Below are positions 1,045 through 43,681 of a stretch of 64,000 nucleotides of DNA, piece by piece (the stretch's first letter is position 1; each line of letters begins with the position of its first letter). Origin of the DNA: Heptranchias perlo (taxonomy: Eukaryota); assembly GCF_035084215.1 (NCBI RefSeq), contig NC_090332.1:1736001-1800000 (forward strand), in the 5' to 3' direction. The position numbers were made by a program, and so were the translations under genes. The notes beneath the pieces are model-generated. The model made no database searches. It was not told the DNA's origin and saw only the letters and a program-made list of their open reading frames with translations.

Positions 1045-1392
1045 GTCCATTGGCTGATCCTGTCCTTGCTCAGTATCCAACAGTCAGCAAGGTTCCAGAG
1101 GGTGAAACCATCCAGTTACAATGTGCCATGTACAATGCCAGTGTGAGTGACACTGATGCCCACTGGTACTACCAGAGACCTGGGAACAACAGCAAGTGGC
1201 TGATGAGCCATTTTGTAAATGGCACCATTACCAGATCCCAAGGTTTCCCCGACCGTTTTCAGCCATCCAGGAATGTCACCAGTAACAGTTACATTCTGAC
1301 CATCGTGAATGTGTCACTCAGTGACACTGCTGTCTACAACTGCAGTGTGTGGAGCTACATCTATGGAGCAGGGACCCAGCTCAATGTAACCG
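1045..1392 (+). CDS. Gene A exon: germline-joined VJ-type Ig V-set domain (type A)
   Basis: xPLADPVLAQ...QLQC...HWY...DTAVYNCSVWSYIYGAGTQLNVT; B- and F-strand Cys, C-strand Trp, J-like YGxGTxLxV; 348 nt, phase 1-1, donor G|gtaagt; acceptor ag abuts a LINE poly(A). Confidence 0.9.
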
Positions 1393-1818
1393 GTAAGTCA
1401 ATGTTAAGTAACACTGGTCACAATTTGCATTCAGATAGTGCCTTTCACGTGAAACACATCCCACTTCACAGAGACACAAGGAAAGGAATGGTCCCTGAGC
1501 CAGGGAGGGTTGGTGAGGGGGAGGGGGAGCCGGTCGTGATTCGCAGAAGTTTTGTGGAGCGAGGAAGCTCCTTCCGATCCACAAAAAACACTTTGGAAAT
1601 TCTGGGCCTTTTTTGAGGCCTATTTTTGATCTACCTCCTGCGATCTCTTTAGCATTGCCCCAAACTGCCATACAGATCGGGTGTGGGCCTATGCACTGCT
1701 AAATTGGTTATCTTTGCGCCTGTATTAGGCCCATAAAATGGGCACAACAATGTTAAGGTAAGACCCCTTTATATCTGATGGACTGGTCATTCAAGGCTGT
1801 TAACTTGCCAGATCTAAA

Positions 1819-2005
1819 GGGCCAACTTTAACCTAACCCTCCCATCGGGAAACTGAGGGGATCGGGTGCAACACTGGTTTTAAAACCCGCCCGATTTTAC
1901 TCCCTGTTGGAGTCAGTGAAGCGTAACATTGGGCGGCCTGTGAAACCGACATGCCACCCAATCCCGTCAGTTTCCCGACTGACGGCTTAGGTTAAAATTA
2001 ACCCC
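1819..2005. mobile_element. Palindromic MITE, probably Harbinger-type non-autonomous element
   Basis: Ends gggccaactttaacctaa ... ttaggttaaaattaacccc are imperfect inverted repeats, internal arms also pair; aaa on both flanks. Confidence 0.6.
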
Positions 2006-2098
2006 AAAGACTCTAAACTAATTTTGCTGATTTTATGTCAATCTTGGACATCGGCCATACTGAAGCTGCTATGTGTGTAACATTGTGATATTTTACAG

Positions 2099-2249
2099 AA
2101 GAATCATCCCTCAATAATCCCTGGATGTCAGATCTTATTGTTATTAGCATGGGCACAATCCTGGGCTTTGTTGTCCTGTTCTGCATTGTTCTGGTCACAT
2201 TGTTCCTCGTAAAACAAAGGACCTGCTTGGAAAAGAGCTCAACACAAGG
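2099..2249 (+). CDS. Gene A transmembrane exon
   Basis: ttttacag|..GG|gtaaat, phase 1-2; EESSLNNPWMSDLIVISMGTILGFVVLFCIVLVTLFLVKQRTCLEKSSTQG; hydrophobic stretch then KQR; homologous to 34919-35060. Confidence 0.88.
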
Positions 2250-2333
2250 GTAAATACAATTTCATCTCATGTCTGTTGCTGTTACAGCACAAAGTCATTA
2301 TTTTAAAATTTGCTGATTTTGGTGAGTGAAAGT

Positions 2334-2433
2334 ACTTCCATTGTACGATACAGTTCCATTGTACGACACAGTTCCGTTGTACGGCACGGTTCCGTTGTAC
2401 GGCACGGTTCCGTTGTACGGCACGGTTCTGTTG
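2334..2433 (+). repeat. 18-bp tandem repeat (cggttccgttgtacggca), about 5.5 copies
   Basis: Direct reading. Confidence 0.85.
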
Positions 2434-2759
2434 TAAGTCGTGTGATCTGCTCCTGCTGTGATCATCGCAGGTCCAGATACACAACTGTTGCCACTTCATC
2501 ACAACTCCATCTTGGCATCTCACTTACTCCAGAACCAGCCCAGAGACACCCACTAGTTAGAGTCAGAAGGGTTTTCAATGGATAAAGTACTGAACAGCAC
2601 CCTGCCGAACACCCTGTAGGAGCTGGGCAATTTCCCACCGACCACGACTGACGGGTTGTCTTGGAGTGCAGGTTTGGTGCCTGGCCGCAGGCAAATATGG
2701 CCCAGGCCTCATGGTGGTAAGAACAAGCAGGTGACGGGCACAATCGGCCCAACCAGTCT

Positions 2760-3375
2760 GTGTCGACCCTTACCCTCCACACCAACAAGTAGTCCTAATC
2801 ACATTTACTCACCCTGTTCCCCTTTCCCTTCATCCCCCTATCCAGTCTGATCCTGAACGTTGACAGTTTTTGCCTCAACCACTAACCCTGGGAGTGAATC
2901 CCACGGCCTCACAACTCTCTCTGTGTGAAGGAGTTTCTTCTGCTCTCTGTTCTAAATCTCTTACATTTAATCTTGTTTCTCTGGCCCCTCGTTCTAGATC
3001 CTCAACTACTGGGAACAGTCTGCTTCTATCTACCCTGTCCCAGCCTTTACAAATTTTAAACACTTTGATCGTATCGCCCTGTAATCTGCGTTGTTCTAAT
3101 GGGGGTAAAAACAATTTTCAATACTTCCTTTGTATTTATATTTCCTCATTCCAGGCAGCATCCTGGTGAACCTGTGCTGTCCCCTCTCTAAAGCCTCAAT
3201 ATCCTTCCTATAATGGAGTCCAATACTGCACACAGTACTCTCACTGAGATCTTATTAAAGTTTCTGAAGGCTTGTCATTATCTCTTGGCTTTTATATTCT
3301 GTACCTCATGAAATAAAAGCCCAGAATTCCATTAGCTTTTTTTACAGCCTTATCAACCTGCGGTGCTGCCTTTAA
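2760..3375 (-). mobile_element. Old, degenerate CR1 LINE 3' fragment
   Basis: Remnant translation LEQRRLQGDTIKVFKI matches the CR1 ORF2 C-terminus seen elsewhere in the window. Confidence 0.75.
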
Positions 3376-3441
3376 TGTAAGAAGTAGAGTTTAGACTAAG
3401 ATCATGGAATTCCCAGTGGGAATCCCTCTATTTCTTTGTTA

Positions 3442-3662
3442 TGGAGGAGGAGGAGGAAGAGGAGGTGGATGAGGATGAGGAGGAGGATGAGGAGGTGGAT
3501 GAGGAAGAGGATGAGGATGAGGAGGTGGAAGAGGAGTAGGATGAGGAAGTGGATGGGGAGGTGGAAGAGGAGGAGGATGAGGAGGAGGAGGATGAGGAGG
3601 AGGAGGAGGAGGAGGTGGAAGAGGAGGAGAATGAGGAGGTGGATGGGGAGGTGGAAAAGGGT
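3442..3662 (+). repeat. Imperfect (GAG/GAT/GTG)n purine-rich trinucleotide repeat
   Basis: Direct reading; lies in a gene A intron. Confidence 0.9.
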
Positions 3663-4267
3663 AGAATTAAGAAATTTAGAGTAAGGCATCACAAAAGACA
3701 TTTGTTCCCTACATCCGGATACAATCACCAGGGTTTACAGACCAAGGCAGTCTTGAATAGTCTTCTCTGGACGTCAGTGTGTCAGAAAGCTGTGCATCTC
3801 TCCCCACTCACTTTTGGTCAACTGTTGTCTGAAAATTTGCAGCCCATTCCCACCAGAACACTGTTCCACTGAAAGTCACCACTGCCTTCAATTTCTTTGC
3901 ATCTGGATCCTCCCTCTGTACTCTGTGGACAACAGAAAGCAGAGTTCTGCTCACTGGCACTTAAAAGCACAGGGAGACCTCTGCCAGCACATGTCTGAAG
4001 GCTGATGAGATTTTCATTGTTAGTAAAGGAAGGACGGACTTAGCGGATTTAACTAACAGTAAAAACATAAAGGCATTGCAGCACACCCCCTGAGACCATC
4101 TTCTTAAACTTTAATTTTGAAATTTAAAATGTTGTAGTGAGTGAGAATTCAAAGTATTGTGGAGTCAAAGTAATGGGAATAGACTCAGAGACCAATCAAA
4201 TCCTGAATTCAGGCTGGTTCAGGAGCAGTTATCCTGCACATGCTGAAATCACAGTGAGGGAGACAAT

Positions 4268-4724
4268 CTTTTTTTTTATTCGTTCATGGGATGTGGGCAT
4301 CGCTGGCGAGGCCGGCATTTATTGCCCATCCCTAATTGCCCTTGAGAAGGTGGTGATGAGCCGCCTTCTTGAACCGCTGCAGTCCGTGTGGTGAAGGTTC
4401 TCCCACAGTGCTGTTAGGAAGGGAGTTCCAGGATTTTGACCCAGCGACGATGAAGGAACGGCGATATATTTCCAAGTCGGGATGGTGTGTGACTTGGAGG
4501 GGAACGTCCAGGTGGTGTTGTTCCCATGTGCCTGCTGCCCTAGAGGTCGCGGGTTTGGGAGGTGCTGTCGAAGAAGCCTTGGCGAGTTGCTGCAGTGCTT
4601 CCTGTGGATGGTGCACACTGCAGCCACAGTGCACCGGTGGTGAAGGGAGTGAATGTTTAGGGTGGTGGATGGGGTGCCAATCAAGCGGGCTGCTTTGTCC
4701 TGGATGGTGTCGAGCTTCTCGAGT
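4268..4724 (-). mobile_element. Family 1 CR1-group LINE, 5'-truncated
   Basis: poly(T) at 4268 and ORF end HHHLLKGN. Confidence 0.9.
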
Positions 4725-4752
4725 GTTTATCTGATGTGTGATATTTATTTAG

Positions 4753-4796
4753 GATCCCTGTTGATGACCTGAACATCGTGTATGCAACGTTGAATG
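4753..4796 (+). CDS. Gene A cytoplasmic exon 1 with ITIM IVYATL
   Basis: tttag|...G|gtaagc, phase 2-1, in frame with the TM exon: GIPVDDLNIVYATLN. Confidence 0.82.
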
Positions 4797-4907
4797 GTAA
4801 GCAAACCAATTTATTTATAGGAAACCTACATCACGCAATCCTATCAGAGTGAAGGTGGGAGGAGATTGCTCCTTGGCTTGTAGCTACAGTTTGATGCATC
4901 CTTCCAG

Positions 4908-4962
4908 GCACAGAAAGCTCAGGAAACAACCTCCGGCAGCACATCGAACCACATTGGTGTAG
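4908..4962 (+). CDS. Gene A cytoplasmic exon 2 (putative)
   Basis: ccttccag|...AG|gtctgt, phase 1-2, open: GTESSGNNLRQHIEPHWCR; bridges the phases of the flanking exons. Confidence 0.55.
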
Positions 4963-5199
4963 GTCTGTGATATTGTCACTTCTCAGGGCAACTTTACAAT
5001 AGAGTGCTGCTGTTAGAGAGTGGCCCTCGAGCCTCTCACCAGCTGTCCTCCTATAATATAAAACTGCCCATTGCGATACGGGTGTATTATTTTTAATTAG
5101 ACATCCTTCCAACCAACCAGACAATGTTTAAATATTAAATATGAAATATTACAAATCATTCCTTGTAACAAATGTAATGTGTCTGTGTTATTCAAACAG

Positions 5200-5246
5200 A
5201 TTGAAAGAAAATAATCAAGGATCAGAAGTTCCCAATGAATTATTTG
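5200..5246 (+). CDS. Gene A cytoplasmic exon 3 (putative; alternative donor at 5248)
   Basis: aaacag|A TTG AAA...TTT G|gtgtat: LKENNQGSEVPNELF; the 49-nt version has the same length and phase as gene B exon 30920-30968. Confidence 0.5.
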
Positions 5247-5769
5247 GTGTATTTATTGTCTGACTGCATGTTACATGTACAGAGATTGGCCCCTATTTAC
5301 TATTTCTCGGAAACTCCCTTCCACATTGCTGGATTGAGTCACAGCCATATTGACTTGTGAGGGTTGTGCTGATCTTATTTTCTGAAATTCATCACCCCAT
5401 GGGTCTGTAACCAAAGCTGCCTCATTTGTTAAACACATTTTGGGCATCTTTAAATTCATAGCACCTTCTGTTTGAGAATTCTCGATGCAAACCTACAGCA
5501 TCAGTTGCCATCGTGTTTGTGTGCAGTCTGTGGAAGTTCTATATAGTCTCCCATCTCCATTGTGAACTAAACATCAGGCTGTTCTTTGAAAATGAAGTTC
5601 CTTTTATGGAACTAACAGGTTATCTACAACATGTCCCATTCCATGTAATGTCATCAATTCCTGTAGACTCCTAACTACACTGGAAGAGTTTTCGAACTGT
5701 AGCAGGCTAATTATGTTGTACTTTAAATGTCATAACATTTGTCCATTGTATCAAGTGGAGAACCAATAT

Positions 5770-6712
5770 TACAGAACATGCATGGTTAGTAAGTTTGCAG
5801 ATGACACCAAGATTGGTGGCATTGTGGACAGTGAAGAAGGTTATCTAGGATTGCAACGGGATCTTGATAAATTGGGCCAGTGGGCCGATGAATGGCAGAT
5901 GGAGTTTAATTTAGATAATTGTGAGGTGATGCATTTTGGTAGATCGAATCGGGCCAGGACCTACTCCGTTAATGGTAGGGCGTTGGGGAGAGTTATAGAA
6001 CAAAGAGATCTAGGAGTACAGATTCATAGCTCCTTGAAAGTGGAGTCACAGGTGGATAGGGTGGTGAAGAAGGCATTCAGCATGCTTGGTTTCATTGGTC
6101 AGAACATTGAATGCAGGAGTTGGGATGTCTTGTTGAAGTTGTACAGGGCATTGGTGAGGCCACACTTGGAGTACTGTGTACAGTTCTGGTCACCCTATTA
6201 TAGAAAGGATATTATTAAACTAGAAAGAGTGCAGAAAAGATTTACTAGGATGCTACCGGGACTTGATGGTTTGACTTACAGGGAGAGGTTAGACAGACTG
6301 GGACTTTATTCCCTGGAGAGTAGGAGGTTAAGGGGTGATCTTATAGAAGTCTATAAAATAATGAGGGGCATAGATAAGGTCGATAGTCAAAATCTTTTCC
6401 CAAAGGTAGGGGAGTCTATAACGAGGGGGCACAGATTTAAGGTGAGAGGGGAGAGATACAAAAGGATCCAGAGGGGCAATTTTTTCACTCAAAGGGTGGT
6501 GAGTGTCTGGAACGAGCTGCCAGAGGCAGTAGTAGAGGCGGGTACAATTTTGTCTTTTAAAAAGCATTTGGACAGTTACATGGGGAAGATGGGTATTGAG
6601 GGATATGGGCCAAGTGCAGGCAATTGGGACTAGCTTAGTGGTATAAACTGGGCGACATGGACATGTTGGGCCGAAGGGCCTGTTTCCATGTTGTAACTTC
6701 TATGATTCTATG
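5770..6712 (+). mobile_element. CR1 LINE 3' fragment
   Basis: ORF with FADD ... PSAGNWD, ctatgattctatg tail; same subfamily as 44381-48440. Confidence 0.93.
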
Positions 6713-6980
6713 CAACAGTGAAATGTGTAACCTAGACAGAAAATTAATCAATTTTAAGGAATTTGTGGTTACAATACACAGTTTCAGGTTCCTGCCAGAA
6801 GCAGGAACATACAGACCAGTGTGGTACAGGAAGATTCAATCTCTGGTCCGCACTGAGCTAGCTGATCTCAGTTGGGGTAGTGAAAGGCATCTTATAATTG
6901 GCCTCAGCATCCCAGATTAAGAAGGCAAAATGAGTCAGAGTTCCCATTCATTCCTGATGACTATCCAGCAATACTTAGGT

Positions 6981-7439
6981 GTCAGCCATGGCTCAGTGGG
7001 CAGCACCCTCACCTCTGAATCAGGCGATTGTGGGTTCAAGTCCCACTCCAGAGACTTGTAGTACAAAATCTAGGCTGACACTCCCAGTACAGTACTGAGG
7101 GAGTGTTGCACTGTTGGAGGTGCTGTTTTTCAGATGAGATCTTAAACCGAGGCCCTATCTGCCCTCTTAGGTGGAAGTAAGAGGTCCCACGGCACTATTT
7201 TAAAGAGGAGCAGGGGGAGTTCTCCCCGGTGTCCTGGCCAATATTCATCCCTCAACCAACATCACTAAAAACAGATTATCTGGTCATTATCTCATTGCTG
7301 TTTGTGGGATCTTGCTGTGTGCAAATTGGCTGCTGCATTTCCTACATTACAACAGTGAGTTCATTTCAAAAGTACTTCTTGGCTATAAAGCGTTTTAGGA
7401 TGTCCTGAGGTCATGAAAGGCGCTATAAAAATACAAGTT
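6981..7439 (+). mobile_element. tRNA-derived Deu-domain SINE (SacSINE1-like)
   Basis: Box A tggctcagtgg, box B ggttcaagtccc, Deu-like core ttaaaccgaggccc...gtcctggccaa, L2-like tail aaggcgctataaaaatacaagt. Confidence 0.8.
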
Positions 7440-7801
7440 CCATCCATCCCATTGCATCCAATCCATGTTACCGACTGGACATTGGACGAGGGCAGGACCA
7501 GGCTCACTTGTGATGCTCTCCTCAGTCAAATAGCTAGCCAACACTCATCATTAAAGCTCAAGTGTGAATAATGGCCACCGGAGTGACCAGCACTGATAAA
7601 GGCACATCCCAGCAAGGAGTCAATATCTTCCAGGGACCAGGAAAGGAGCAAAAAGGAAAAAATATTTAGTTTACAACTACTGTAGATGGAACACTGATCG
7701 AATTTTGGATTTATATTTCCTTGGCCAATCTATTCACCAGCAGGCACTCTTTCACCACATGTACGAAATAAACAATGATTGACGTTTTTATTGTATTGCA
7801 G

Positions 7802-7896
7802 TTGGAAGAAAAGAAGAAATCCATTACTCTGAGCTTCAACTCCCACGGCAAAAACTCCAGCCGACAGTGAGAGTCACTCGGGCTATGCTGTTGTGA
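7802..7896 (+). CDS. Gene A terminal coding exon with ITIM IHYSEL
   Basis: ttgtattgcag|, phase 1 reads VGRKEEIHYSELQLPRQKLQPTVRVTRAMLL*; aligns to gene B last exon; ancestral end SGYAVVRRT* (stop 7907) is in another frame. Confidence 0.7.
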
Positions 7897-8031
7897 GACG
7901 CACATAATCACCTGAAGTTATTCAACAGGATGATTTGGTAACTGTGGCAGTTGTCAGACTGGAAGGACGTGCTCAAATATAATAATTACTGATGCTACTG
8001 CACATCTGGACAGTCTCAACTTCCATTAATG

Positions 8032-8709
8032 CCCAGACCCCGATATTACTGGACAGTCAGACACTCCCAGACCCTGATATTACTGGACAGTCAGACACTC
8101 CCAGACCCCGATATTACTGGACAGTCACACACTCCCAGACCCTGATATTACTGGACAGTCAGACACTCCCAGACCCCGATATTACTGGACAGTCACACAC
8201 TCCCAGACCCCAATATTACTGGACAGTCAGACACTCCCAGACCCCGATATTACTGGACAGTCACACACTCCCAGACCCTGATATTACTGGACAGTCACAC
8301 ACTCCCAGACCCTGATATTACTGGACAGTCAGACACTCCCAGACCCCGATATTACTGGACAGTCAGACACGTCCAGACCCCGATATTACTGGACAGTCAG
8401 ACACTCCCAGACCCTGATATTACTGGACAGTCAGACACTCCCAGACCCTGATATTACTGGACAGTCAGACACTCCCAGACCCCGATATTACTGGACAGTC
8501 AGACACGCCCAGACCCTGATATTACTGGACAGTCACACACACCCAGACCCCGATATTACTGGACAGTCAGACACGCCCAGACCCTGATATTACTGGACAG
8601 TCAGACACTCCCAGACCCCGATATTACTGGACAGTCACACACTCCCAGACCCTGATATTACTGGACAGTCAGACACTCCCAGACCCTGATATTACTGGAC
8701 AGTCAGATA
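8032..8709 (+). repeat. 34-bp minisatellite (cccagaccccgatattactggacagtcagacact), about 20 copies
   Basis: Period 34 (gatattact at 8042, 8076, ...). Confidence 0.95.
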
Positions 8710-8849
8710 CAGAATTGAGAGTTAATAGTTGAACTGAACTACAGTGACCATAACTGGGTGATGGACCAGCAGGTTGTCTGGAAACACGAAGAGGAGGTTG
8801 AGTTCTGTTCCGCTCCCGATGTCTTCTTATCAATTGCAAGGCAAGGGAG

Positions 8850-9270
8850 TGTATATTAGAATGGATATCAACCATAAGTAATTAATTAATGTATAACTAT
8901 AGTACTTACTAATTAGTCATAGTATAGTATGGAGGATGCTTTGGAGTAAACATGGTGTCCTTGATAATATCAGGAGGTAACTAGTCATAAGGGGGTTAGA
9001 AGGAGTTGGGAGTCTGAAGTTCTGCCTCTATATAATATAAAGTATGTTCCCATTGTCTAGTAAAAACCAGTGTATAAAAGAGGGTGAGGTTACAAGGTTA
9101 GGTCAGGTAACTGGAGAGAGAGAGAAACTCAATGCTGCCCTCGTACTGTATAGATTGACCACCTATGCTGGATGAATAAAGTCTGTTCCGTACACTCAAC
9201 TGTCAAGTGTCTTGAGTTTACCTGAAGCGAGTCGCCAGAACCATAGAAAGAAGGAGGTTGACTAATAGCT
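8850..9270 (+). mobile_element. Possible solo LTR
   Basis: TATAAAA 9073-9079 followed by AATAAA 9175-9180; tg-initiated; clean TG..CA ends and TSD not established. Confidence 0.3.
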
Positions 9271-19100: not shown

Positions 19101-21807
19101 CCTGGTCTGAATTTGTCCTATCTGTACCTGCCCTTTGGTTCCCACCCCCCTGCCATACTAGTTTAAACCCTCCCCAACAGAACTAGCAAATGTCCCCGCG
19201 AGGATATTGGTCCTGGTTCTGCTTGGGTGCAACCCGTCCAGCTTGTACAGGTCCTGCCTTTCCCAGAATCGGTCCCAATGCCTCAGGAATTTAAACCCCT
19301 CCCTCCTACACCATCTCTCAATCCACGCATTCATCTGGTCTATTCTCCTATTTCTGCTCTCGCTAGCACGTGACACTGGGAGTAATCCTGAAATTACTGA
19401 CTTAGAGGTCCTGCTTTTTAATGTATTTCCTAACTCCCTATATTCTGCTTGCAGGACCTCATCCCTTTTCTTTTACCTATGTCGTTGGTACCAATATGAA
19501 CCAAAACCTCTGGCTGTTCACCCTCCCCCTTCAGAATGTCCTGCAGCCGCTCAGTTACATCCTTGACCCTTGCACCAGGGAGGCAACATACCATCCTGGA
19601 GTCATGTCTGCGGCCGCAGAAACACCTATCTGTTCCCCTTACGATGGAATCCCCTATCACTATTGCTCTCCCGTTCTTTTTCCTCCCCTCCTGTGCAGCT
19701 GAGTCACTCGTGGTGCCACGGTCTTGGCTCTTGCTGCTTTCCCCTGATAAGCCATCTCCCCCAACAATATCCAAAGCGGTATATCTGTTTGAGAGGGAGA
19801 TGGCCCCAGGGGACTCCTGCTCTACCTGCCTAGTCCTTTTACTCTGCCTGGCGGTCACCCATTTCCTTTCTGCCTGTGTAATCTTTACCTGCGGTGTGAC
19901 CACCTCATTGAACGTGCTATCCACAATAATCTCAGCATCGCGGATGCTCCACAGTGAATCCACCCGCAGCTCCAGCTCCAAAATGTGCTTGGTCAGTAGC
20001 TGCAGCTGGACACACTTCCTGCACACATGGTCACCAGGGAGACCGGTAGTGTCCATGACTTCCCACATAGTGCAGGAGGAGCATATCACGGATGCGAGCT
20101 CTGCTGCCATGACTTGCCTTAGATTAAGCTCGTTAGTTACTCCCTTTAAGGAGTTTATTCCTTTAAATTACTCTTAATTTAGAGAATGTAAACTACACTA
20201 GGGACCTTGATTCACTAAAAAATGCTACTTGCTATAACTAAATTAAGATTAGTTTTTTTAAAAAAATTTAGTTTTATTCTATCAGTTACTGAGCCCACAG
20301 TCCTAAGAAAGAAGAAAACAGAAGAGATACTCACCAGTTTTGTTTTGTTGTTGCTGTGACCCGCTCTCAGTACGCCCCTCTCCCCTCTCCGCGCGCCCCT
20401 CTCCCCTCTCGGTGCGCCCCTCTCCCCTCTCGGTGCGCCCCTCTCCCCTCTCCGCGCGCCCCTCTCCCCTCTCGGTGCGCCCCTCTCCCCTCTCGGTGCG
20501 CCCCTCTCCCCTCTCGGTACGCCCCTCTCCCCTCTCGGTGCGCCCCTCTCCCCTCTCGGTGCGCCCCTCTCCCCTCTCGGTGCGCCCCTCTCCCCTCTCG
20601 GTGCGCCCCTCTCCCCTCTCGGTGCGCCCCTCCCCCCTCTCGGTACGCCCCTCCCCCCTCTCGGTGCGCCCCTCCCCCCTCTCGGTACGCCCCTCTCCCC
20701 TCTCGGTACGCCCCTCTCCCCTCTCGGTGCGCCCCTCTCCCCTCTCGGTGCGCCCCTCTCCCCTCTCGGTGCGCCCCTCTCCCCTCTCGGTGCGCCCCTC
20801 TCCCCTCTCGGTGCGCCCCTCTCCCCTCTCGGTACGCCCCTCTCCCCTCTCGGTACGCCCCTCTCCCCTCGGTACGCCCCTCCCCCCTCTCGGTACGCCC
20901 CTCTCCCCTCTCGGTGCGCCCCTCTCCCCTCTCGGTACGCCCCTCTCCCCTCTCGTTGCGCTCCTCTCCCCTCTCGGTACGCCCCTCTCCCCTCTCGGTG
21001 CGCCCCTCTCCCCTCTCGGTGCGCCCCTCTCCCCTCTCGGTACGCCCCTCTCCCCTCGGTACGCCCCTCCCCCCTCTCGGTGCGCCCCTCCCCCCTCTCG
21101 GTACGCCCCTCCCCCCTCTCGGTACGCCCCTCTCCCCTCTCGGTGCGCCCCTCTCCGCTCTCGGTACGCCCCTCCCCCCTCTCGGTACGCCCCTCCCCCC
21201 TCTCGGTGCGCCCCTCCCCCCTCTCGGTGCGCCCCTCCCCCCTCTCGGTGCGCCCCTCTCCCCTCGGTACGCCCCTCCCCCCTCTCGGTACGCCCCTCCC
21301 CCCTCTCGGTGCGCCCCTCTCCCCTCTCGGTACGCCCCTCTCCCCTCTCGGTGCGCCCCTCTCCCCTCTCGGTACGCCCCTCCCCCCTCTCGGTGCGCCC
21401 CTCTCCCCTCTCGGTGCGCCCCTCTCCCCTCTCGGTACGCCCCTCCCCCCTCTCGGTACGCCCCTCCCCCCTCTCGGTGCGCCCCTCCCCCCTCTCGGTA
21501 CGCCCCTCCCCCCTCTCGGTACGCCCCTCTCCCCTCTCGGTGCGCCCCTCTCCCCTCTCGGTACGCCCCTCTCTGCTGTCTAAACAAATGCACCTCACCC
21601 CTTCCTGCACCGAATCCCCTCACTCACCAAATTCCCAATTACACACTCTGTCGAAACCAGACTCTGTCGATAGCTGCCACTCTGTGCTCCCTCACTCCGT
21701 GCGTTGGCAAAACCCTTCTGAATTTATGCTCGCTGGAATGCCAATTACCTGAGTCAGTCCCAGCTGACAGTAGATTACCAGTTCTAACCAGTCACCTAAT
21801 TAACTAG
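16115..21807 (-). mobile_element. Full-length but frameshifted CR1 LINE (ORF1 zinc-finger + SGNH esterase; ORF2 APE + RT) inserted into an old L2 fragment
   Basis: ORF1 pieces 19430-20110/19158-19376 (CxxC, GDSIVRG, GTND, DGLH); ORF2 pieces 18277-18798, 18045-18275, 16300-17943; L2 sequence resumes on both sides (gctccaccatc | gtgaccaactgccacttcag). Confidence 0.9.
20362..21574 (+). repeat. 21-bp GC-rich minisatellite (ctctcggtgcgcccctctccc), about 58 copies, within the CR1 5' UTR
   Basis: Direct reading; lies between ORF1 start and element 5' end. Confidence 0.95.
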
Positions 21808-26193: not shown

Positions 26194-26310
26194 TTATGCG
26201 CGTTTGATGGCAGCATACTCAGTCGTCTCCTCGCTGATTATTAATGTCGGCCCTCCGGTGTTCTGTCGCAAGAACTGAATGTCGGCGTAATACATTTCTC
26301 CTTCCTCCGA
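26194..26310 (-). CDS. Gene B terminal coding exon with ITIM-like MYYADI and ITSM TEYAAI
   Basis: gtgttttcag|, phase 0: SEEGEMYYADIQFLRQNTGGPTLIISEETTEYAAIKRA*. Confidence 0.85.
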   Translation of the reverse strand, partial: SEEGEMYYADIQFLRQNTGGPTLIISEETTEYAAIKRA

Positions 26311-29662: not shown

Positions 29663-30142
29663 CTCTCCCCCCCATTGTTAATGTACTGTCCAAACATGAG
29701 AAACAGTGGCTTGTTGTGATATTGGGAGGGGTTGCTGGCATTTGTGAACTGAATCCCAGCAAGAGCCAGCTCCTTTAGAAGAGAGCTGCTGATAAGTAAA
29801 AGGGGCAAACTATAGCATACAGGCTTAAAGAGGAAGTAATAGTATGTTTTTAACAGCACGTATAAAAGCTGCTGCCCAGTACTTACTGCAGTAGAGATTG
29901 CTGCTGCCTGTTTATTAGTCCGGGTTTCAACTGAAATAAAATAAGAACCTGGTTGAGTTTATTATAGCTGTCATGTGTGTGACTGATAACCACAGTGAAA
30001 TCACAGTGTGATCAAAAACTTCGAGCCAATGCTGTTCACTTCTAGTTAGATTGTGTCCCACTCAACGACCTGCAGCAAACCATGAGCATGGAGATAAGCT
30101 GCATACTCTTAGTCAGTGCTCTACGTATGCACACCACGAGAA

Positions 30143-31505: not shown

Positions 31506-31546
31506 CATTGACTGATGCATCCACATTAACGTCTTCAGTACGAGTC
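31506..31546 (-). CDS. Gene B cytoplasmic exon 1 (ITIM Tyr replaced by Asp)
   Basis: tttacctag|...G|gtaagg, phase 2-1: GTRTEDVNVDASVN; positional homolog of 4753-4796. Confidence 0.78.
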
Positions 31547-34433: not shown

Positions 34434-34537
34434 GAGAAAGAAACAGAGAGAAAGAGATGTTGGCAAGAGAAAGAGAGAACACAGTAAAGACAGTGCAGTA
34501 CAGAGAGATACAGAAGGACAAAAAGAGAAAGCGAGGG
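34434..34537 (+). repeat. 104-bp GA-rich direct repeat, copy 1 (copy 2 at 36011-36114)
   Basis: Three mismatches between the copies by eye. Confidence 0.9.
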
Positions 34538-34918: not shown

Positions 34919-35060
34919 CCTTCTGGTTTTAATCTGCTTTGAAAACATGCCCATCTTTTCACGTAGAATAATACGGTTATCAGGATGCAGAGTAAGATGA
35001 TTAATACCAGGGCACAGACTGCGATGATGGAGATGATATGCCAGTTCTTTTCAGATCGTT
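34919..35060 (-). CDS. Gene B transmembrane exon
   Basis: attttacag|..GG|gtaaat, phase 1-2: xRSEKNWHIISIIAVCALVLIILLCILITVLFYVKRWACFQSRLKPEG. Confidence 0.88.
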
Positions 35061-35255
35061 CTGTAAAATATTAAAAGTTTATGTATAGTTCAACATCACT
35101 AACATGGATTGAACAAGGATTCAGGTTTAATATAAGAACAATGGAGACAGACAGCCATCACTTGATACAACACTGCTCTCGGGCACTAAGGCAGAACAGC
35201 ACTGTAGTGAGGGATGCACTGCATGTGGAGTTCATACAAAGGGAGAAACACTTGG

Positions 35256-35763
35256 GGGTAGATTTTCAACTTACTGGCTTGGCGTAAAATTGGTGTTGGA
35301 GGTCGTTCCTGCCATAGAATCGTAGGACGATACAGCACAGAAGGAGGCCATTCGGCCCATCGTGCCTGTGCAGACACTTTAAAAGAGCTATCCAATTAAT
35401 CCCACTCCCCTGCTCTTTCCCCAATTGCCCTGCAATAGTTTTCCCTTCAAGTATTTATCCAATTCCCTTTTAAAGTTATTATTGAATCTGTTTCCACCGC
35501 CCTTTCAGGCAGCGCATTCCAGATCAGAACAACTCGTTGGGTAAAAAAATGTTTCCTCATCTCCCCTCTGGCTCTTTTGCCGATCACCTTAAATCCGTGT
35601 CCTCTGGTCACCGACCCTTCCGCCACTGGAAACAGTTTCTCCTTATTTACTCAAATTTTCATTTCCATTGATTTCACTGAAAATGAAATTTGGGCGGTTT
35701 CTCTCACTGACAGTGATCTGCAATGGAAATTTAATCCCGCGCGGCAAGTGGAAAATCTACCCT
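35256..35763. mobile_element. Harbinger-like MITE carrying a nested CR1 3' end (35313-35650, minus)
   Basis: TIRs gggtagattttcaactt ... aagtggaaaatctaccc. Confidence 0.7.
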
Positions 35764-36010
35764 TTGATACTTCTGACACTTGTACACTTCTGACAGAGGC
35801 TCTGAAATTGCATGGGCTGTGATCTCGACAGTTGCGCTGGGATCTCACTAACTGCTGTGTTCCAGCGCCGACCGTGCCAGAGTTGGCAGGGTCTGTGGGA
35901 GGGCATTTCATTGGGTAAGCACTGTCGGAGATCGCAGTGCCCGTCAGCCCCACACTGCTGGAAACACTATGGCCTGTTGTCGATCAGGGAGAGGGAAGGA
36001 CAGAGAGAGA

Positions 36011-36114
36011 GAGAAAGAAACAGAGAGAAAGAGATGTTGGCAAGAGAAAGAGACAAGACAGTAAAGACAGTGCAGTACAGAGAGATACAGAAGGACAAAA
36101 AGAGAAAGGGAGGG
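36011..36114 (+). repeat. 104-bp GA-rich direct repeat, copy 2
   Basis: Matches 34434-34537. Confidence 0.9.
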
Positions 36115-37551
36115 AAAGACTCCCCCCAACCCCCTCACCAGAGAAAAGATTTCTGCCATATCTTTGTAAAGAGGTTGATCATAAATCATTTTTTTTAAAA
36201 ACAAGTTACATGATCTTTGAGGTTCCAGGCACTGCCCTGGCCTAGACCCCTGCCCTTCCTGATGAGACCCAGTTTATACCCTTCTGGGGGCAGGTATGCC
36301 CCATTTTACAGTGTACCAGCCTCCAACATTACACCAAGTACAAATGAGGTCAGGGAAACTCCTCTGCAGGGAGTCCCTACCCTTGGCCCGTGGCACAATT
36401 CAAAGAACAGCAGGGAATTTTTATCCCCCCCAACGGTTGTAGATTTGTGAAGCAGAGTCTCTCTTATTAAACAATTAATTTTGTGCCAAATAACTTTTTT
36501 AAAAGATCTGGGTAGACATCTGGGGGACAAAACCCCACTAGACTTTGTAGGGTCAGGGGGATATCACTGTTTTCCTTGCCCTGCGTGGCTACCTGGACCA
36601 CCAGGGGCATCTCTGGTGCCCACCTACGGGAGGGTGAGGGGGCCCCCTGAAAAGCAGCCACCAGATACCCCTCAGTCCCCTTTGTGAGGGGATTTGATAT
36701 TAAAATGAAATTGCTGTCTTGGGTGCTTGAGACTGCAATCCAAGCCTGGACCACCAGGTGGGCAACAATAGCCATGGAAGCAGCAAGTACACCTGTTCTC
36801 ACTCAGCGTACCAGCTAACAATGATCCACCTGGAGAAATACAGGCCAGAGACATTGGGAGCTCCCAGACTAGGAGTCCTCAGCCCAGGCCCTGCCCTCTC
36901 CAATGTCAGTGCATTTGTTTGGGTTTCTGGAGATGCCCCATTCCCAACAAGAGCCAGAGAAAAATTAGCCGGAAAAATAACCCAGCATTTCCAGATCCCA
37001 ACCCTTCTGTTGCAGGCCCGCTGGAGTTTCCAGCTGCCAGGTTAGAAAAAGGATTGAAAGTAATAAAGATAAATAAAGATGATTGGCTGCTAGGCCGCAC
37101 AGAAATAAAATGTCAAGGAATGCAACTGGTGAACGGCGAATAATGTAGGTTGTAAAGTTGAGCAGGTATTGGAATTCTGCTCGAGTTAGGTCTAGGAAGA
37201 TTTGGAAGATCCTTTCTTCATCAGACAAAATGGATGGGCCAACAGTTCATGACTGACTACCTATCATCTGTGGAAGGAGTTGCTTGATTGGCTGAATACT
37301 TTTTCCTTGTTCTGCACTTTCTTGTACTCTTTCTTGTGAATTCTGTGCCGTGATATTGGCCTATCCAGACAGTGAATCCGTGATTACCCTGGAATTCCAA
37401 ATTCTAATCATATGAAAACTTCTCTGCTTCTTCTAGAAGACACAATTTTAGTCTCAGCCCTTGTCCACTCTGCCCTGTGATGGTTAAACAGGTCCTCAGT
37501 ACGGTGTTGTTACTGTGACTCTGCCCCCAGTGTTAGCTAACATTGAATTAC

Positions 37552-40322
37552 AGGTTACATTGAGCTGGGTTCCGGCTCCATAGATGCAGCTCCACACACT
37601 GTAGTGTGGAATGGATAGAGGATTGGTTAACGGACAGAAAACAGAGAGTAGGAATAAACGGGACATTTTCGGGTTGGCAGGCTGTAACTAGTGGGGTACC
37701 GCAAGGATCGGTCAACTATTTATAATCTTTGTTAATGACTTAGATGAAGGGACCGAGTGTAATGTATCCAAGTTTGCTGAACAATACAAAGCTAGGTGGG
37801 AAAGTAAGCTGTGAGGAGGACACAAAGAGTCTGCAAAGGGATATAGATAGGTTAAGTGAGTGGGCAGGAAGGTGGCAGATGGAGTGTAATGTGGGGAAAT
37901 GTGAGGTTATTCAGTTTGCTGAGAAGAATAGAAAAAGAAAATATTTTTTATATCATAGAATCGTGGAATCACTGAAAGGTTACAGCACGGAAGAAGGCCA
38001 TTCAGCCCATCGAGTCCGTGCCGGCTCTCCGCAAGAGCAATCCAGCGAGACCCACTCCCCTGCCCTTTCCCCATACCCCTGCAATTTTTTTCCTTTCAAG
38101 TACTTATCCAGTTCCCTTTTGAAGGCCATGATTGAATCTGCCTCCACCACCCCCTCGGGCAGTGCATTCCAGATCCTAACCACTCGCTGGGTCAAAAAGT
38201 TTTTCCTCATGTCACCTTTGATTCTTTTGCCAATCACCTTAAATCTATGTCCTCTGGTTCTTGACCCTTCTGCCAATGGGAACGGTTTCTCTCTCTCCAC
38301 TCTGTCTGGACCCTTCATGATTTTGAATACCTCGATCAAATCTCCTCGCAACCTTCTCAGTTCCAAGGAGTACAACCCCAGCTTCTCCAGTCTATCCACA
38401 TAACTAAAGTCCCTCATCCCTGGAATCATTCTAGTAAATCTCTTCTGCACCCTCTCTAAGGCCTTTGCATCTTTCCTGAAGTGCGGTGCCCAGAACTGGA
38501 CACAATACTCCAGTTGTGGCCGAACCAGTGTTTTATAAAGGTTCATCATGACTTCCATACTTTTGTACTCTATGCCTCTATTTATAAAGCCCAGGATCCC
38601 ATATGCTTTTTTAACCACTTTCTCAACCTGCCCTGCCACCTTCAGCGATTTGTGCACATATACCCCCAGATCTCTCTGTTCCTGTACCCCTTTTAGTGTT
38701 GTGCCCTCTAGTTTATTTTGCCTCTCCATGTTCTTCCTACTGAAATATATCACTTCACATTTATCTGCGTTAAATTTCATCTGCCACGTGTCCGCCCATG
38801 CCACCAGCCTGTCTATATCCTCTTGAAGTCCATCACTATCCTCCTCACTGTTTATTACCCTTCCAAGTTTTGTGTCATCTGCAAATTTTGAAATTGTGCC
38901 CTCAAAATCTAAGTCCAAGTCATTAATATATATCAAGAAAAGCAGCGGCCCCAGCACCGACCCCCGGGGAACACCACTGTACACCTCCCTCCAGTCCGAA
39001 AAACAACCGTTCACCACTACTCTCTGTTTCCTGTTACTTAGCCAATTCTGTATCCATGTTGCCACTGCCTCTTTTATTCCATGGGCCGCAATCTTGATGA
39101 TAAGCCTACCCTGCGGCACTTCATCAAATGCCTTTTGAAAGTCCACATACACCACATCAACTGCATTGCCCTCATCTACCCTCTCTGTTATCTCACCAAA
39201 AAACTCTATCAAGTTAGTTAAACACGATTTGCCTTTAACAAATCCGCGCTAGCTTTCCCTAATTAATCCACCCTCATCCAAGTGACTGTTAATTCTGTCC
39301 CAGATTATCGTTTCTAAAAGTTTCCCCACCACCGAGGTTAAACTGAGTGGCCTTTGTTGCTGGGTTTATCCTTACACCCTTTTTTGAACAAGGGTGTAAC
39401 ATTTGCAATTCTCCAGTCCTCCGGCACCACCCCCATATCTATGAGAATAATAAGAAACTATTAAATGTTGGTGTTCAGAGAGATTTGGGTATCCTTGTAC
39501 ACGAAACACAGAAAGTTAACATGCAGGTATGGCAAGCAATTAGGAAGGCAAATGGTATGTTGGCCTTTATTGCAAGGGGGTTGGAGTATAAGAGTAAGGA
39601 AGTCTTGCTACAATTGTACAGGGCTTTGGTGAGACCTCACCTGGAGTACTGTGTACAGTTTTAGTCTCCTTACCTAGGGAAGGATATACTTGCCTTAGAG
39701 GCGGTGCAACAAAGGTTCACTCGGTTGATTCCTGGGATGAGAGGGTTGTTCTATGAGGAGAGATTGAGTAGAATGGGCCTATACTCTCTGGAATTTAGGA
39801 GAATGATAGGTGATCTCATTGAAACATATAAAATTCTGAGAGGGAGAAACAGGGTAGATGCTGAGAGGCTGTTTCCCCTGGCTGGAGAGTCTAGAACTAG
39901 GGGGCATAGTCTCAGGATAAGGGGTCGGCCATTTAGGACTGAGATAAAGAGAAATTTCTTCACTCAGAGGGTTGTAAATCTTTGGAATTCTCTACCCCAG
40001 AGGGCTGTGGAGGCTCAGTCGTTGAGTGTATTCAGGGCTGAGATCGACAGACTTTTGGACTCCAGGGGAATCAAGGGAAATGGGGATCAGACGGGAAAGT
40101 GGAGTTGAGGTCAAAGATCAGCCATGATCTGATTGAATAGCGGAGCAGGATCGAGGGGCCGAATGGCCTCCTCCTGCTCCTATTTCTTATGATTTTATGC
40201 AGGCAGCAGTATCACTGAGTGACACATTCACGATGGTCAGAATGTAACTGTTACTGGTGACATTCCTGGATGGCTGAAAATGGTCGGGGAAACCTTGGGA
40301 TCTGGTAATGGTGCCATTTACA
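37552..40322 (-). pseudogene. Destroyed fifth VJ exon (type A) of gene B; remnants at 37552-37605 and 40198-40322
   Basis: 40198-40322 matches the NGTITRSQGFPD..SDTA segment; 37552-37605 reads YSVWSCIYGAGTQLNVT then gtaatt (F-strand Cys to Tyr); split by nested CR1s; 5' half missing. Confidence 0.88.
37606..40197 (+). mobile_element. CR1 (+; 37606-37950 and 39440-40197) containing a nested minus-strand CR1 (37953-39440)
   Basis: ORFs 37744-, 39347-, 39704- on +; RT ORF 37980-39212 on -. Confidence 0.88.
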
Positions 40323-40515
40323 TGGGCTGTGGGAGGAGATTAAATGGGTGGGTAGAGTCCATGATAGGGGAGAGTGTACATGGGCTGTGGGGGGAGATTA
40401 AATGGGTGGGTGGAGTCCATGATAGGGGAGAGTGTACATGGGCTGTGGGGGGAGATTAAATGGGTGGGTAGAGTCCATGATAGGGGAGAGTGAACATGGG
40501 CTGTGGGAGGAGTGG
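40319..40515 (-). repeat. Inverted copy (about 3 units) of the 58-bp minisatellite at 42250-42795
   Basis: catgggctgtgggaggagattaaatgggtgggtagagtccatgatagggg is its reverse complement. Confidence 0.92.
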
Positions 40516-41300
40516 ACTCAGTTTGCTAAATGGCTTTTTCTCATCGTATACTTTCTTGCATTATGATAATTCAGGAGCTGTTTAAAGTGTACAGTTTTAT
40601 TTTAGTAATATGGAGAAATAAAATGTAAGGAAGTGGCTAAAGATATTGAAACATTCATTCCCATCTCAAATTCAGCACTCTCCAAGTAATGATGGAACTT
40701 CAAACTCTCATTAGTTTCAAATTAACTTTTGAACAGAATTAAATATTTTCTCTTCTGAATCTGAACGTCCCCTCGTTCCATTCCACAGAGATCAGATGCT
40801 GATCTCGTAACGTGTTTTCCAATTAAACTGATGCACATAATTACAAGGCTTGCCTCCTGCTGAATCCGACAGATCTGCTCGTTCTGATCTGGCATTCATC
40901 CACCAATGACACAACAGCACCCAGAACTGCGCTTTCCAAATCTTCAGGCCCACAAGACCGAAAAAGGACAAACCAGCAACTATGAAATATAAACGGCAAT
41001 AAGATTGAGCTGCCAGGGGTCAGGGGTTCTATGTGAGCCACGGGCTACAGTTTGGAGACCCCAGCTCTATAATACTTTGTACTGTGACAAACCAGGCAGG
41101 AAATTTACAAACACCAATTGTGAGGGGCAAGCACGCAAAAGGTCTTCAAAAATAAAAAGTTTAATTTTCTCAGATCTTTCTTAACATTTTAAGCCATTAT
41201 ATAAACTTCTGAAGTAAACTTGAGAAACTGCTCTCCAAGTCCCAGCCGCCCAACAGCTACACCATCGGAGATCAGTTAGTATCACGTAAATTGTACTTAC

Positions 41301-41645
41301 TGGTTATATTGAGCTGGGTTCCATTCCCACTGATATCTCCCCACACTTTACAGTAATAGACGGCAGTGTCATTGGGCTGCACGTTTGTGATTGCCAGAAT
41401 GAAGCTGTTATTGGCGATGTCTCTGGAAGGCTGGAAACGGTCAGTGAACCCTGGGCCCCCTCGTGTGTTGTTCATTACATCGTGTGTTAAAACCCACTCC
41501 ATATCTTGCCCTGGTAGTTGCCGGTACCAGTGGACATCGGTGTCTCTCACTGTGGCCTTCTGTATGGTGCACTGTAACCGGGCTGTCTGACCCTCTGTGA
41601 CACCTTCCAGGCTCGGAGACTGGATAATGACGGGAGCATTTGCAA
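41301..41645 (-). CDS. Gene B VJ exon 4 (type B)
   Basis: cctccaaag|..A|gtaagt, 345 nt, phase 1-1; ANAPVIIQSP..RLQC..HWY..DTAVYYCKVWGDISGNGTQLNIT. Confidence 0.92.
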
Positions 41646-42249
41646 CTTTGGAGGAAAATATCAGTAACATAAGAACCAGTCTGAAGGTTTTAAACTGTCC
41701 TCAATGATTAAGTGGAAAGTTCAGGCAGCAAAGTTTCTGTGCTTAAAAGAAAGAACAGAATCTAACACTATATCAGTAGAGTTGGTTAATTAACACCTTA
41801 TATTAAAAATGTAAATATTTTCTAATGCTCTGAACCCTGACCTCTTTACTATGTGTTCAGCAGTGAGAGAATATTATGTTATCTACACTTGAGATAAAAT
41901 ATAGTGTAGAATGAGATTAAAAACCATTCTAAAAAGAATTTTCCTTGATTGGTAATAATTACTCAGACAGAAAATATGGCTGAAAAGAGGCAAATAAAAT
42001 TGATAACCTAAGAAATAATAAATAACTTTCAAATAACTTAGAAATTGGGTAAATACTTGAGAGGAAAAAAATACAGGGCTTTGGGGAAAGAGCAGGCTAA
42101 TGGGACTAAATGGATAGTTCTTTCAAAGAGCCGGCACAGGCATGATGGGCCGAATGGCCTTCTCCTGTGCTGTACTTACTATGATACTATGAAAGTACTG
42201 AACAATAAAAGAACATTTATTTCATCAAATCCACTCCTCCTACACCCTA

Positions 42250-42795
42250 TCATGGACCACCCACCAATTCTATCTCCTTGCATGCATGTATGCAATCCAT
42301 CATGGACTCTACCCATCCATTTAATCTCCTCCCACAGCCCATGTCCACTCTCCCCTATCATGGACTCTACCCACCCATTTAATCTCCCCCCACAGCCCAT
42401 GTACACTCTCCCCTATCATGGACTCTCCCCACCCATTTAATCTCCTCCCACAGCCCATGTCCACTCTCCCCTATCATGGACTCTCCCCACCCATTTAATC
42501 TCCTCCCACAGCCCATGTACACTCTCCCCTATCATGGACTCTACCCACCCATTTAATCTCCTCCCACAGCCCATGTACACTCTCCCCTATCATGGACTCT
42601 ACCCACCCATTTAATCTCCTCCCACAGCCCATGTCCACTCTCCCCTATCATGGACTCTCCCCACCCATTTAATCTCCTCCCACAGCCCATGTACACTCTC
42701 CCCTATCATGGACTCTACCCACCCATTTAATCTCCTCCCACAGCCCATGTCCACTCTCCTCTATCATGGACTCTACCCACCCATTTAATCTCCTG
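42250..42795 (+). repeat. 58-bp minisatellite (catggactctacccacccatttaatctcctcccacagcccatgtacactctcccctat), about 9 copies
   Basis: Period 58 (catgg at 42301, 42359, ...). Confidence 0.95.
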
Positions 42796-42864
42796 AGGGA
42801 ACGTTCTATATAAATACTGCTCGATCCTCAAAGGTAATCAAGGAAAAATCTGGAATATTCTTAA

Positions 42865-43162
42865 AACGCAAAGAACTGCAGGTGCTGGAAATCCAAAACA
42901 CAAACAGTGTGCTTGATAATATTGCTTCTGCCATTTAACTACGTTCTGTAAGCAGTTTACAGGTCAATCTATTTATTTTCCTATGTGTGTTTTCCCCCAT
43001 TCTCCCTTCCCTTTGTTCTGTTCTTTTTAAAATGCTATTCATCTATAATGTCTTCCAGTTCTGACAAAGGTCCTCACCCAAAACATCAACTCCTCTGTTT
43101 TCGCCACAGAAATGCTGCACAGACTCACTGAGACTTTCCGGTGTTTTCTGTTTTTGTTCCAG
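42865..43162. mobile_element. Degenerate Penelope-like element remnant
   Basis: actgcaggtgctggaaatc and inverted ...tgtttttgttccaga; decayed ctgacaaaggtc..acccaaaac hammerhead-like motif. Confidence 0.45.
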
Positions 43163-43333
43163 AGTATTGATCCATTCTCACATCTCCACTATTCAATTCT
43201 TGCTTTCTGTACTCCACAAATATCTTCCCACTCTCCCTCCCCTGACCACAGCATTACAGGAACCATGGTGTCTGACTGCATATTGCCAGTACTGTTGCTG
43301 TGACCCTGCCAGTGTTAGCTAACATTGACTTAC

Positions 43334-43681
43334 CGGTTACATTGAGCTGGGTCCCTGCTCCATAGATGTAGCTCCACACACTGCAGTTGTAGACAGCAGT
43401 GTCACTGAGTGACACATTCATGATGGTCAGAATGTAACTGTTACTGGTGACATTCCTGGATGGCTGAAAACGGTCGGGGAAACCTTGGGATCTGGTAATG
43501 GTGCCATTTACAAAATGGCTCATCAGCCACTTGCTGTTGTTCCCAGGTCTCTGGTAGTACCAGTGGGCATCAGTGTCACTCACACTGGCATTGTACATGG
43601 CACATTGTAACTGGATGGTTTCACCCTCTGGAACCTTGCTGACTGTTGGATACTGAGCAAGGACAGGATCAGCCAATGGAC
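43334..43681 (-). CDS. Gene B VJ exon 3 (type A)
   Basis: tttcctacgtacag|..G|gtaagt, 348 nt, phase 1-1; 347/348 nt identical to 1045-1392. Confidence 0.93.

Follow-up and report, generated by a model that had tools for sequence, protein, structure and literature searches.

The window considered here is a stretch of 64,000 nucleotides from the shark Heptranchias perlo (NCBI RefSeq assembly GCF_035084215.1, contig NC_090332.1, positions 1,736,001 to 1,800,000 of the forward strand). It contains two receptor genes in which exons for immunoglobulin (Ig) variable (V) domains are followed by a transmembrane (TM) exon and a cytoplasmic tail (Table 1). Gene 1 on the plus strand and gene 2 on the minus strand converge tail to tail, and both tails lie between two inverted exons of one type, A1 of gene 1 and A2 of gene 2, whose near-identity is the subject of this report. 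Gene 2 has the order C, B1, A2, B2, TM and three cytoplasmic exons, where A, B and C are types of V domain; the Heptranchias perlo models P0008 and P0016 map to it exon by exon at 100% on the minus strand. Tail motifs are given their established names, immunoreceptor tyrosine-based inhibitory motif (ITIM) and switch motif (ITSM). ITIM-like motifs are present in both tails, charged residues are present in the TM segment of neither gene, and no exon with an immunoreceptor tyrosine-based activation motif (ITAM) was found within the window. By its motifs the A1/A2 gene pair would thus be inhibitory-inhibitory, not opposing, and the comparison with paired receptors of the Siglec-5/14 kind, made in an earlier reading of the letters of this DNA (the sequence-only reading), does not hold for these two genes.

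The ungapped alignment of 1045-1392 (+) with 43681-43334 (-) gives 347 of 348 identical bases, and the sole mismatch, at position 1305 (G versus A), turns GTG into ATG, i.e. Val into Met. Self-BLAST extends the tract to 1043-1417 against 43683-43309, with 372 of 375 bases the same. When identity is counted in bins of 25 nt, it stands at 3-8 of 25 upstream of 1045, at 24-25 over the exon, at 21 over 1395-1419 and at 4-9 past 1420. These counts bear out the sequence-only reading, which had reported the single GTG/ATG difference, had quoted both donor sequences correctly with similarity lost soon afterwards, and had proposed a sliding-window comparison, in which the exon now stands out at 24-25 of 25 from 3-9 on either side. 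It had also described the TM and cytoplasmic exons of the two genes as distantly alignable, and indeed 88 of 158 aligned columns are the same in the TM exons and 72 of 128 in the last exons. A sensitive BLAST of 1393-7950 against 26150-64000 returned repeats together with weak matches at the TM exon (61.7%) and the first cytoplasmic exon, and no non-repeat intron similarity between the two genes was found by BLAST inside the window. The A1/A2 match is real and far beyond chance. A 97.5% match between 5780-6711 and 44381-45312 was considered as part of the tract and rejected, being a repeat that sits in non-corresponding introns. At the synonymous level A1 and A2 show no difference over approximately 74 sites. 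Of 31 shark A domains, 30 have Val at the variable site, and Met is seen in gene 2 only; the mismatch is therefore ascribed to a later change in gene 2, and on this comparison A1 would retain the ancestral Val and the Met of A2 would be derived. Past the donor the identity is unbroken for 14 nt and covers 25 bases in all, with two mismatches (1407-1408); the TM exons, which are not homogenised, likewise keep about 15 identical bases at the donor.

Relatives of the two genes were found as 63 matches among 207 candidate longer proteins, all of them named from sharks and rays. Sorted by the motifs that follow the last V domain, they comprise 13 proteins with a gene 1-like tail (T1), 28 with a gene 2-like tail (T2), 11 of type T3, two of type T4 and nine unclassified; the tests that follow are at protein level and rest on automatic gene models. 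In a quick tree of 50 TM regions, from which T4, unclassified and duplicate rows were excluded, a single branch separates each of T1, T2 and T3 from all other rows, each type covers several orders, and two label changes suffice against 21.3 when labels are shuffled. On the other hand, the tree of A domains (48 rows, 58 before removal of duplicates) is arranged by species or order, and the tail label requires 12 changes among its 40 labelled rows. Forcing the 12 T1 A domains together against the 28 others costs 194 log-likelihood units (approximately unbiased test, p-AU 1.15e-64). This is the outcome that the sequence-only reading had predicted of exon-by-exon trees, V exons by species and TM exons by gene.

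The same contrast is seen in pairwise identities. The median between A domains is 89.6% for 22 within-species pairs of differing tail type and 70.4% for 297 between-species pairs of the same tail type; when two Mobula pairs in which isoforms of one locus take part are dropped, the former becomes 89.2% (n=20). In all five species that have both tails, the best T1-versus-T2 identity within the species exceeds the best T1-versus-T1 identity with another order (99.1/82.6, 93.9/80.0, 88.7/78.3, 93.9/80.0 and 89.6/78.3%), Heptranchias being the most extreme with 99.1 versus 82.6. At the amino-acid level, A1 itself matches the 11 other T1 A domains at 67-83% and its own paralog at 99.1%. An A domain stands immediately before the T1 TM in 11 of 17 T1 models, which indicates that A1 is an old exon that has since been overwritten, and not a new insertion. 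Signalling exons that retain orthology while A domains group by species point, in these sequences, to recurrent concerted evolution, most likely by gene conversion. No Heptranchias model with a T1 tail was seen among the 63 relatives or the best 120 of 136 matches of a second search, a weak negative; a query with the gene 1 TM exon gave no match among three candidates and is uninformative, since T1 orthologs exist.

Homogenisation is not confined to the A exons. B1 and B2, direct repeats within gene 2, differ at five positions in 333 nt, four of them amino-acid changing; their flanks are approximately 70% identical for 80 nt upstream, and similarity ends 13 nt past the donor. Of the two diverged flanks that a short conversion tract should have, both are visible at B1/B2, and the 3' one is visible at A1/A2. 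The order C-B-A-B recurs in 11 models from sharks and rays, and B1/B2 identity is 96.4% in Heptranchias, where the two are paired with a support of 99, and 92.7% in Heterodontus. A broken third A exon also lies in the window, and approximately 45 of its intron bases are common with A2. The minisatellite downstream of A2 (40319-40512 and 42245-42794) has an inverted copy fused to this broken exon, whose 5' half it replaces at a short common motif, and the fusion suggests a local template switch. Three long minisatellite arrays lie between and behind the two genes (8031-8710, 20360-21580 and 23621-25580).

Outside the window, model P0084 carries a C-B ectodomain and an ITAM-pattern tail (YxxL-x7-YxxL). 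Its C domain is the same as that of gene 2 (P0008) at 92 of 92 residues, and its B domain is 97% alike but corresponds to neither B exon of the window; P0084 is a separate gene from P0008; their accessions are consecutive, and both lie on a record of the same length. In total 98 family models, the 63 relatives and 35 picked from the matches of the second search, were examined, and by pattern alone 22 have ITAM and 44 have ITSM tails. Judged from such motifs, the receptor family has the layout of a paired system, with ITIM/ITSM and ITAM members that bear near-identical outer domains in one species. Four carpet-shark models (P0006, P0014, P0097 and P0103) combine a T1-type TM exon with an ITAM-pattern tail, where other T1 genes have ITIM/ITSM, which would represent tail shuffling within the family. 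In Mobula, P0045 and P0057 come from one annotated locus and have an ITIM/ITSM tail and an ITAM tail, respectively; this is either a merged model or a case of alternative opposite tails on one ectodomain.

Table 1. Features of the two receptor genes and their surroundings in the 64,000-nucleotide window of Heptranchias perlo.
Feature	Position	Strand	Basis or remark
Long interspersed nuclear element (LINE) retrotransposon, 3' end	1-1042	+	open 325-residue reading frame 3-980; Pfam RVT_1 E 1.5e-16; 97.6% to 58649-59690
Gene 1 A-type V exon A1, V and J in one exon	1045-1392	+	putatively ancestral Val
Donor and first 25 intron bases common with gene 2	1393-1417	+	2 mismatches 1407-1408; similarity ends there
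Gene 1 TM exon, tail type T1, hydrophobic stretch uncharged	2099-2249	+	tblastn Carcharodon P0027 66.7% over 51 residues; clusters with T1 tails
Gene 1 cytoplasmic exon with ITIM-like IVYATL	4753-4796	+	sequence motif
Gene 1 last exon, ITIM-like IHYSEL; terminal ITSM-like GYAVV out of frame	7802-7908	+	tyrosine spacing
Gene 2 last exon, ITIM-like YYADI and ITSM TEYAAI	26194-26310	-	100% to P0008/P0016
Gene 2 middle cytoplasmic exon	29887-29930	-	mapping of P0008/P0016
Gene 2 first cytoplasmic exon	31506-31546	-	mapping of P0008/P0016
Gene 2 TM exon, tail type T2, uncharged	34919-35060	-	mapping and TM tree
Broken third A exon, 3' piece, donor mutated	37508-37605	-	93/109 columns versus A2; more intron common with A2 than A1 has
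Broken third A exon, middle piece, G at variable site	40198-40322	-	121/125 versus A1, 120/125 versus A2; repeats inserted between it and the 3' piece
Gene 2 B-type V exon B2	41301-41645	-	5 differences in 333 nt versus B1
Gene 2 A-type V exon A2, acceptor intact, putatively derived Met	43334-43681	-	mapping of P0008/P0016
Gene 2 B-type V exon B1	51646-51990	-	mapping of P0008/P0016
Gene 2 N-terminal C-type V exon	62610-62966	-	92/92 aligned residues same as ITAM-bearing P0084

Upstream of A1 the window consists of the 3' end of a LINE whose reverse-transcriptase reading frame is open and whose poly(A) tail stops two nucleotides short of the exon. The 5' limit of the identity is therefore the insertion point and not a visible conversion edge, and restriction to the exon, as claimed in the sequence-only reading, is demonstrated for the 3' side but not for the 5' side. 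The element has three private differences in 873 columns, the lowest value of six copies compared, which marks it as the youngest. Its age (0.34%) and that of the exon match (0.29%) are similarly low, so either insertion or conversion may have come first. The A1 acceptor keeps its AG with three pyrimidines in 17 positions, against 9-13 of 17 at six other scored acceptors, the poly(A) having taken the place of the pyrimidine tract; the LINE would weaken inclusion of A1 or favour exon skipping, and the insertion may be polymorphic. Transduction of the A exon by the LINE was considered and rejected, given the position of A before the T1 TM in 11 of 17 T1 models and the lack of a poly(A) after 1417.

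The tail of gene 1 has changed as well. In its last exon the two tyrosine codons lie 59 nt apart, whereas all of 11 related tails have 24 codons there, and the ITSM-like motif is out of frame as a result; compared with these tails it has gained two bases near its start and lost a net 13 between the tyrosines. No convincing candidate for the middle cytoplasmic exon was found in 4800-7790 (best score 14). If 4796 were spliced directly to 7802, both ITIM-like motifs would stay in frame, and the 2-base gain, which would preserve the reading frame of the ITIM when the middle exon is left out, looks like compensation. Gene 1 thus looks damaged or remodelled in its acceptor and its frameshifted last exon, but is not proven dead. 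In gene 2, the first tail tyrosine of T2 relatives (LNTVYATV-type) is absent (VNVDASV, 31506-31546).

Both loci were also checked against contigs of four raw-read runs, compared with 940-2320. Run X1 is DNA by guess and possibly the assembly's own sample, and so counts as no independent biological evidence. Its contigs cover 1043-1303 with no difference at a depth of 21.7 and 1274-1406 with one difference at a depth of 23.4; a gene 1 branch covers 1377-1879 with no difference (depth 6.4) and continues over 1853-2320 (depth 7.1). The exon contig is 556 nt long and runs 295 nt beyond. These contigs fit two or more loci that have the A exon, and the exon contigs are 3.0-3.7 times as deep as those of gene 1, which hints roughly that there are more than two copies or that gene 1 is hemizygous. 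In run X7, from a second organism (organism B), 8 of 122 exon bases differ, one synonymous among the three changes listed, and depth is 816 for the exon contig and 142 for the gene 1 TM contig. Two runs guessed to be RNA cover 1097-1271 and 1101-1264 at a depth of 4-5, assignable to neither gene; they leave the gene 1 TM exon uncovered, which is not informative.

The A exon encodes a V-set domain with a joining (J)-like end, and its nearest PDB entries are antibody V domains; a search of the ESM Atlas returned generic V-set clusters only. All four V domains of the window are V-set with the canonical YxC, a J-like motif and two cysteines each. Types A, B and C are mutually 44-54% identical, as close to one another as they are to shark Ig light-chain V domains (P0125-P0128), with which A shares 45-52%, B 53-56% and C 40-44% identity. 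With shark Ig light chains they have the V and J-like segment in common, but here a single germline exon holds both V and J, a gene has several such exons, and a TM segment and a tyrosine-motif tail follow. A rearranging light-chain locus has separate V and J segments and a constant domain, and no constant domain occurs in the models of the window. The A domain (1047-1391) has seven N-glycosylation sequons in 115 residues and is usually membrane-proximal or mid-chain; it may be a spacer and not a ligand-binding domain.

Siglecs combine a V-set domain that has a sialic-acid-binding Arg with C2-set domains. The domains described here are not Siglec-like, and no Siglec occurs among the PDB matches, the 63 relatives or the best 120 of 136 matches; furthermore, activating Siglecs use an adaptor, whereas both TM segments here are uncharged. 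The mode of change is familiar from mammals. In KLRC/NKG2, KLRI, KLRB, Ly49 and PIR genes homogenisation is confined to ligand-binding exons (merohomogenization), one tract running from about 50 bases before an exon to about 50 after, and rodent Nkg2 genes have exon-sized conversion patches (PMC3210942). Those genes resemble the present ones in that ligand-binding exons follow species and signalling exons follow genes, and in patches of a few hundred bases on single exons. They differ in that the partners there have opposite signals, while here the pair is inhibitory-inhibitory with one damaged-looking member, from another protein family and lineage. Within-species likeness of ectodomains, orthology of signalling exons (with labels that are partly circular) and synonymous identity are all found in the shark genes too. 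SIGLEC11 and SIGLEC16 resemble the present pair as inverted neighbours with repeated conversion in which a non-functional allele can take part, but they lie head-to-head 9 kb apart with a similar region of 3 kb (PMC5701461), against tail-to-tail genes, 42 kb and a visible tract of approximately 0.36 kb here. ITIM and ITAM CEACAMs are kept alike by conversion and recombination (PMC2832619). As in CEACAM1/CEACAM3 pairs, Ig V-like domains are alike between ITIM/ITSM members and ITAM members with tails of their own; the shark ectodomains differ in being built of successive VJ-type V domains that have a J-like motif, and no CEACAM appears among the 63 relatives or the best 120 of 136 matches. Teleost NILTs and skate MDIRs, too, are V-domain receptors from clustered multigene families, and their tails bear ITIMs or ITAMs; they are described as CD300/TREM/pIgR-like, a group with an extra CxnC motif (bioRxiv 10.1101/2022.04.21.489081, PMC3031540), whereas domains of types A, B and C contain no cysteines beyond two and are closest, among named proteins, to Ig light-chain V domains. 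MDIRs are set apart by their description, and no match named MDIR was seen among the 63 relatives or the best 120 of 136 matches, though skate members of the family turned up. The shark system works like the KLR, SIGLEC and CEACAM cases, yet lies outside their protein families. No prior description of the family, or of conversion in it, was found in open-literature titles and abstracts, where subscription journals are sparsely covered. The reading that these genes make up an undescribed paired-receptor family of sharks and rays, with unrearranged VJ exons whose nearest named relatives are shark Ig light chains, and in which V modules have spread by repeated copying among ITIM/ITSM and ITAM genes and from one position to another within a gene since before the shark-ray split, has slightly less than even odds.

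The A1/A2 match itself is probably due to non-allelic gene conversion between V exons of the same type, as one episode of a process that recurs across the cluster. From the ancient tail types of these two old paralogs, the near-identity of the exons, the species-wise grouping of A domains and the same pattern in the B exons, the following course may be proposed. Introns filled with different repeats would have left exons as the last homologous islands; the template available to DNA repair would then be limited to exons of matching type, and tracts would halt near the exon edge. The donor may have been A2 or another A copy. The sequence-only reading had placed the conversion across the 42-kb inverted pair, and its homogenisation is upheld but its choice of partner is not, since the broken third A copy and the contig depth, which hints at further copies, mean that the donor need not be the 42-kb partner. 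The Val-to-Met change would have arisen in gene 2 after the copying, and the LINE would have landed in the gene 1 acceptor at about the same recent time. In the family at large, which would work like paired receptors, conversion may ensure that ITIM/ITSM members and ITAM members go on binding one ligand as it changes; for the inhibitory-inhibitory pair studied here, the copying may be a neutral by-product.

Several points weigh against this explanation. The 5' end of the tract is masked by the LINE and the window edge, and its 3' end is not finely placeable, since the match of approximately 15 bases at the donor of non-homogenised TM exons means that the 14-25 intron bases common to A1 and A2 may be old. 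In three myliobatiform rays B1 and B2 are only 64-68% identical and group by position, so that homogenisation must be regarded as episodic. Among the contigs listed none bridges the junction between LINE and exon, and as contigs lose rare variants, a few hidden A1/A2 differences may exist. The clustering of TM regions is partly circular, the tail labels having been set by motifs of the same region. Gene models in the cluster can be chimeric, e.g. P0066, and the isoforms P0045 and P0057 give a single locus two different tails. The transfer is presumed to be non-reciprocal, on evidence from one assembly and cross-species models, and ligand binding and signalling are suggested by motifs and analogy.

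Among other explanations, a reciprocal process is unlikely but ranks first: repeated crossing-over at the two inverted A exons would turn the 42-kb interval round and back again, homogenise the exons and swap tails between ectodomains. The A copies are inverted with both tails between them, some T1 tails (four of 17 models) follow a C-B ectodomain of the kind typical of T2/T3 genes, and for CEACAMs 'gene conversion and reciprocal recombination' has been invoked (PMC2832619). However, B1 and B2, which are direct repeats in one gene, are homogenised as well, and across orders T2 genes retain C-B-A-B and most T1 genes D/B...A. A slightly less likely event is a recent segmental duplication or unequal exchange that replaced everything in gene 1 from the 5' end to a little beyond the A donor; the identity would then be the 3' end of a longer block that the LINE masks. 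All window sequence 5' of 1043 is indeed LINE, the X1 exon contig depth of 21.7 against 6.4-7.1 for gene 1 alone hints at more than two copies with a common flank, P0084 shares the whole C domain of gene 2 and 97% of a B domain, and SIGLEC11/16 tracts reach approximately 3 kb (PMC5701461). Against such a copy, the B1/B2 identity is exon-centred with flanks that fall off and no LINE involved, and recurrence in five species demands repeated events at the same 3' edge.

An assembly artefact, with reads from one locus collapsed into the exon of its counterpart or used to polish it, is improbable. It would accord with the unbridged LINE-exon junction, with the capacity of contigs to mask isolated variants and with site 1305 not being among the letters listed. 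Nevertheless, X1 has one contig and no other letter at 1159, 1167 and 1176; a contig breaks at 1303 and a second one, 1274-1406, carries one difference, as the G/A site predicts; the gene 1 branch starts at 1377 with no differences, the exon is covered several times more deeply than a single locus, and independent assemblies show the same species-wise grouping. Conversion templated by cDNA, with gene 2 mRNA copied by active LINE machinery, deserves even less credit: the tract is exon-sized and intact young LINEs are present, but 14 intron nt are unchanged and approximately 45 intron bases are common to the third copy and A2, which is unexpected from a spliced template, though these bases could be old. 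Least credible of all is purifying selection that holds the A exon invariant. Shark sequences are slow and organism B differs at just 8 of 122 nt, yet A1 is 67-83% identical to other T1 A domains against 99.1% to its paralog, and the probability of no difference at 74 synonymous sites is 0.006 at a neutral divergence of 6.6% and 8e-5 at 12%. The sequence-only reading had judged purifying selection alone insufficient, with which the lack of synonymous differences agrees, and the divergence of A domains across species already refutes it.

With gene conversion as the probable cause, the mechanism is one established in mammals, and the exon match taken alone would be a tidy new example in a seemingly undescribed family. 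Beyond the single pair, a receptor cluster of cartilaginous fishes, held under unrelated automatic database names, shows domain-level concerted evolution across sharks and rays. In consequence V-domain trees are unable to assign orthologs in this cluster, and the tails are needed for that purpose. A candidate family is now defined whose expression and ligand comparative immunologists can examine, and since its V domains are close to those of Ig light chains, it is relevant to the origin of antigen-receptor V domains. If it is truly an undescribed paired family, receptor pairing maintained by conversion would reach the oldest lineage with adaptive immunity, and the family would offer a living model of a non-rearranging antigen-receptor-like gene.

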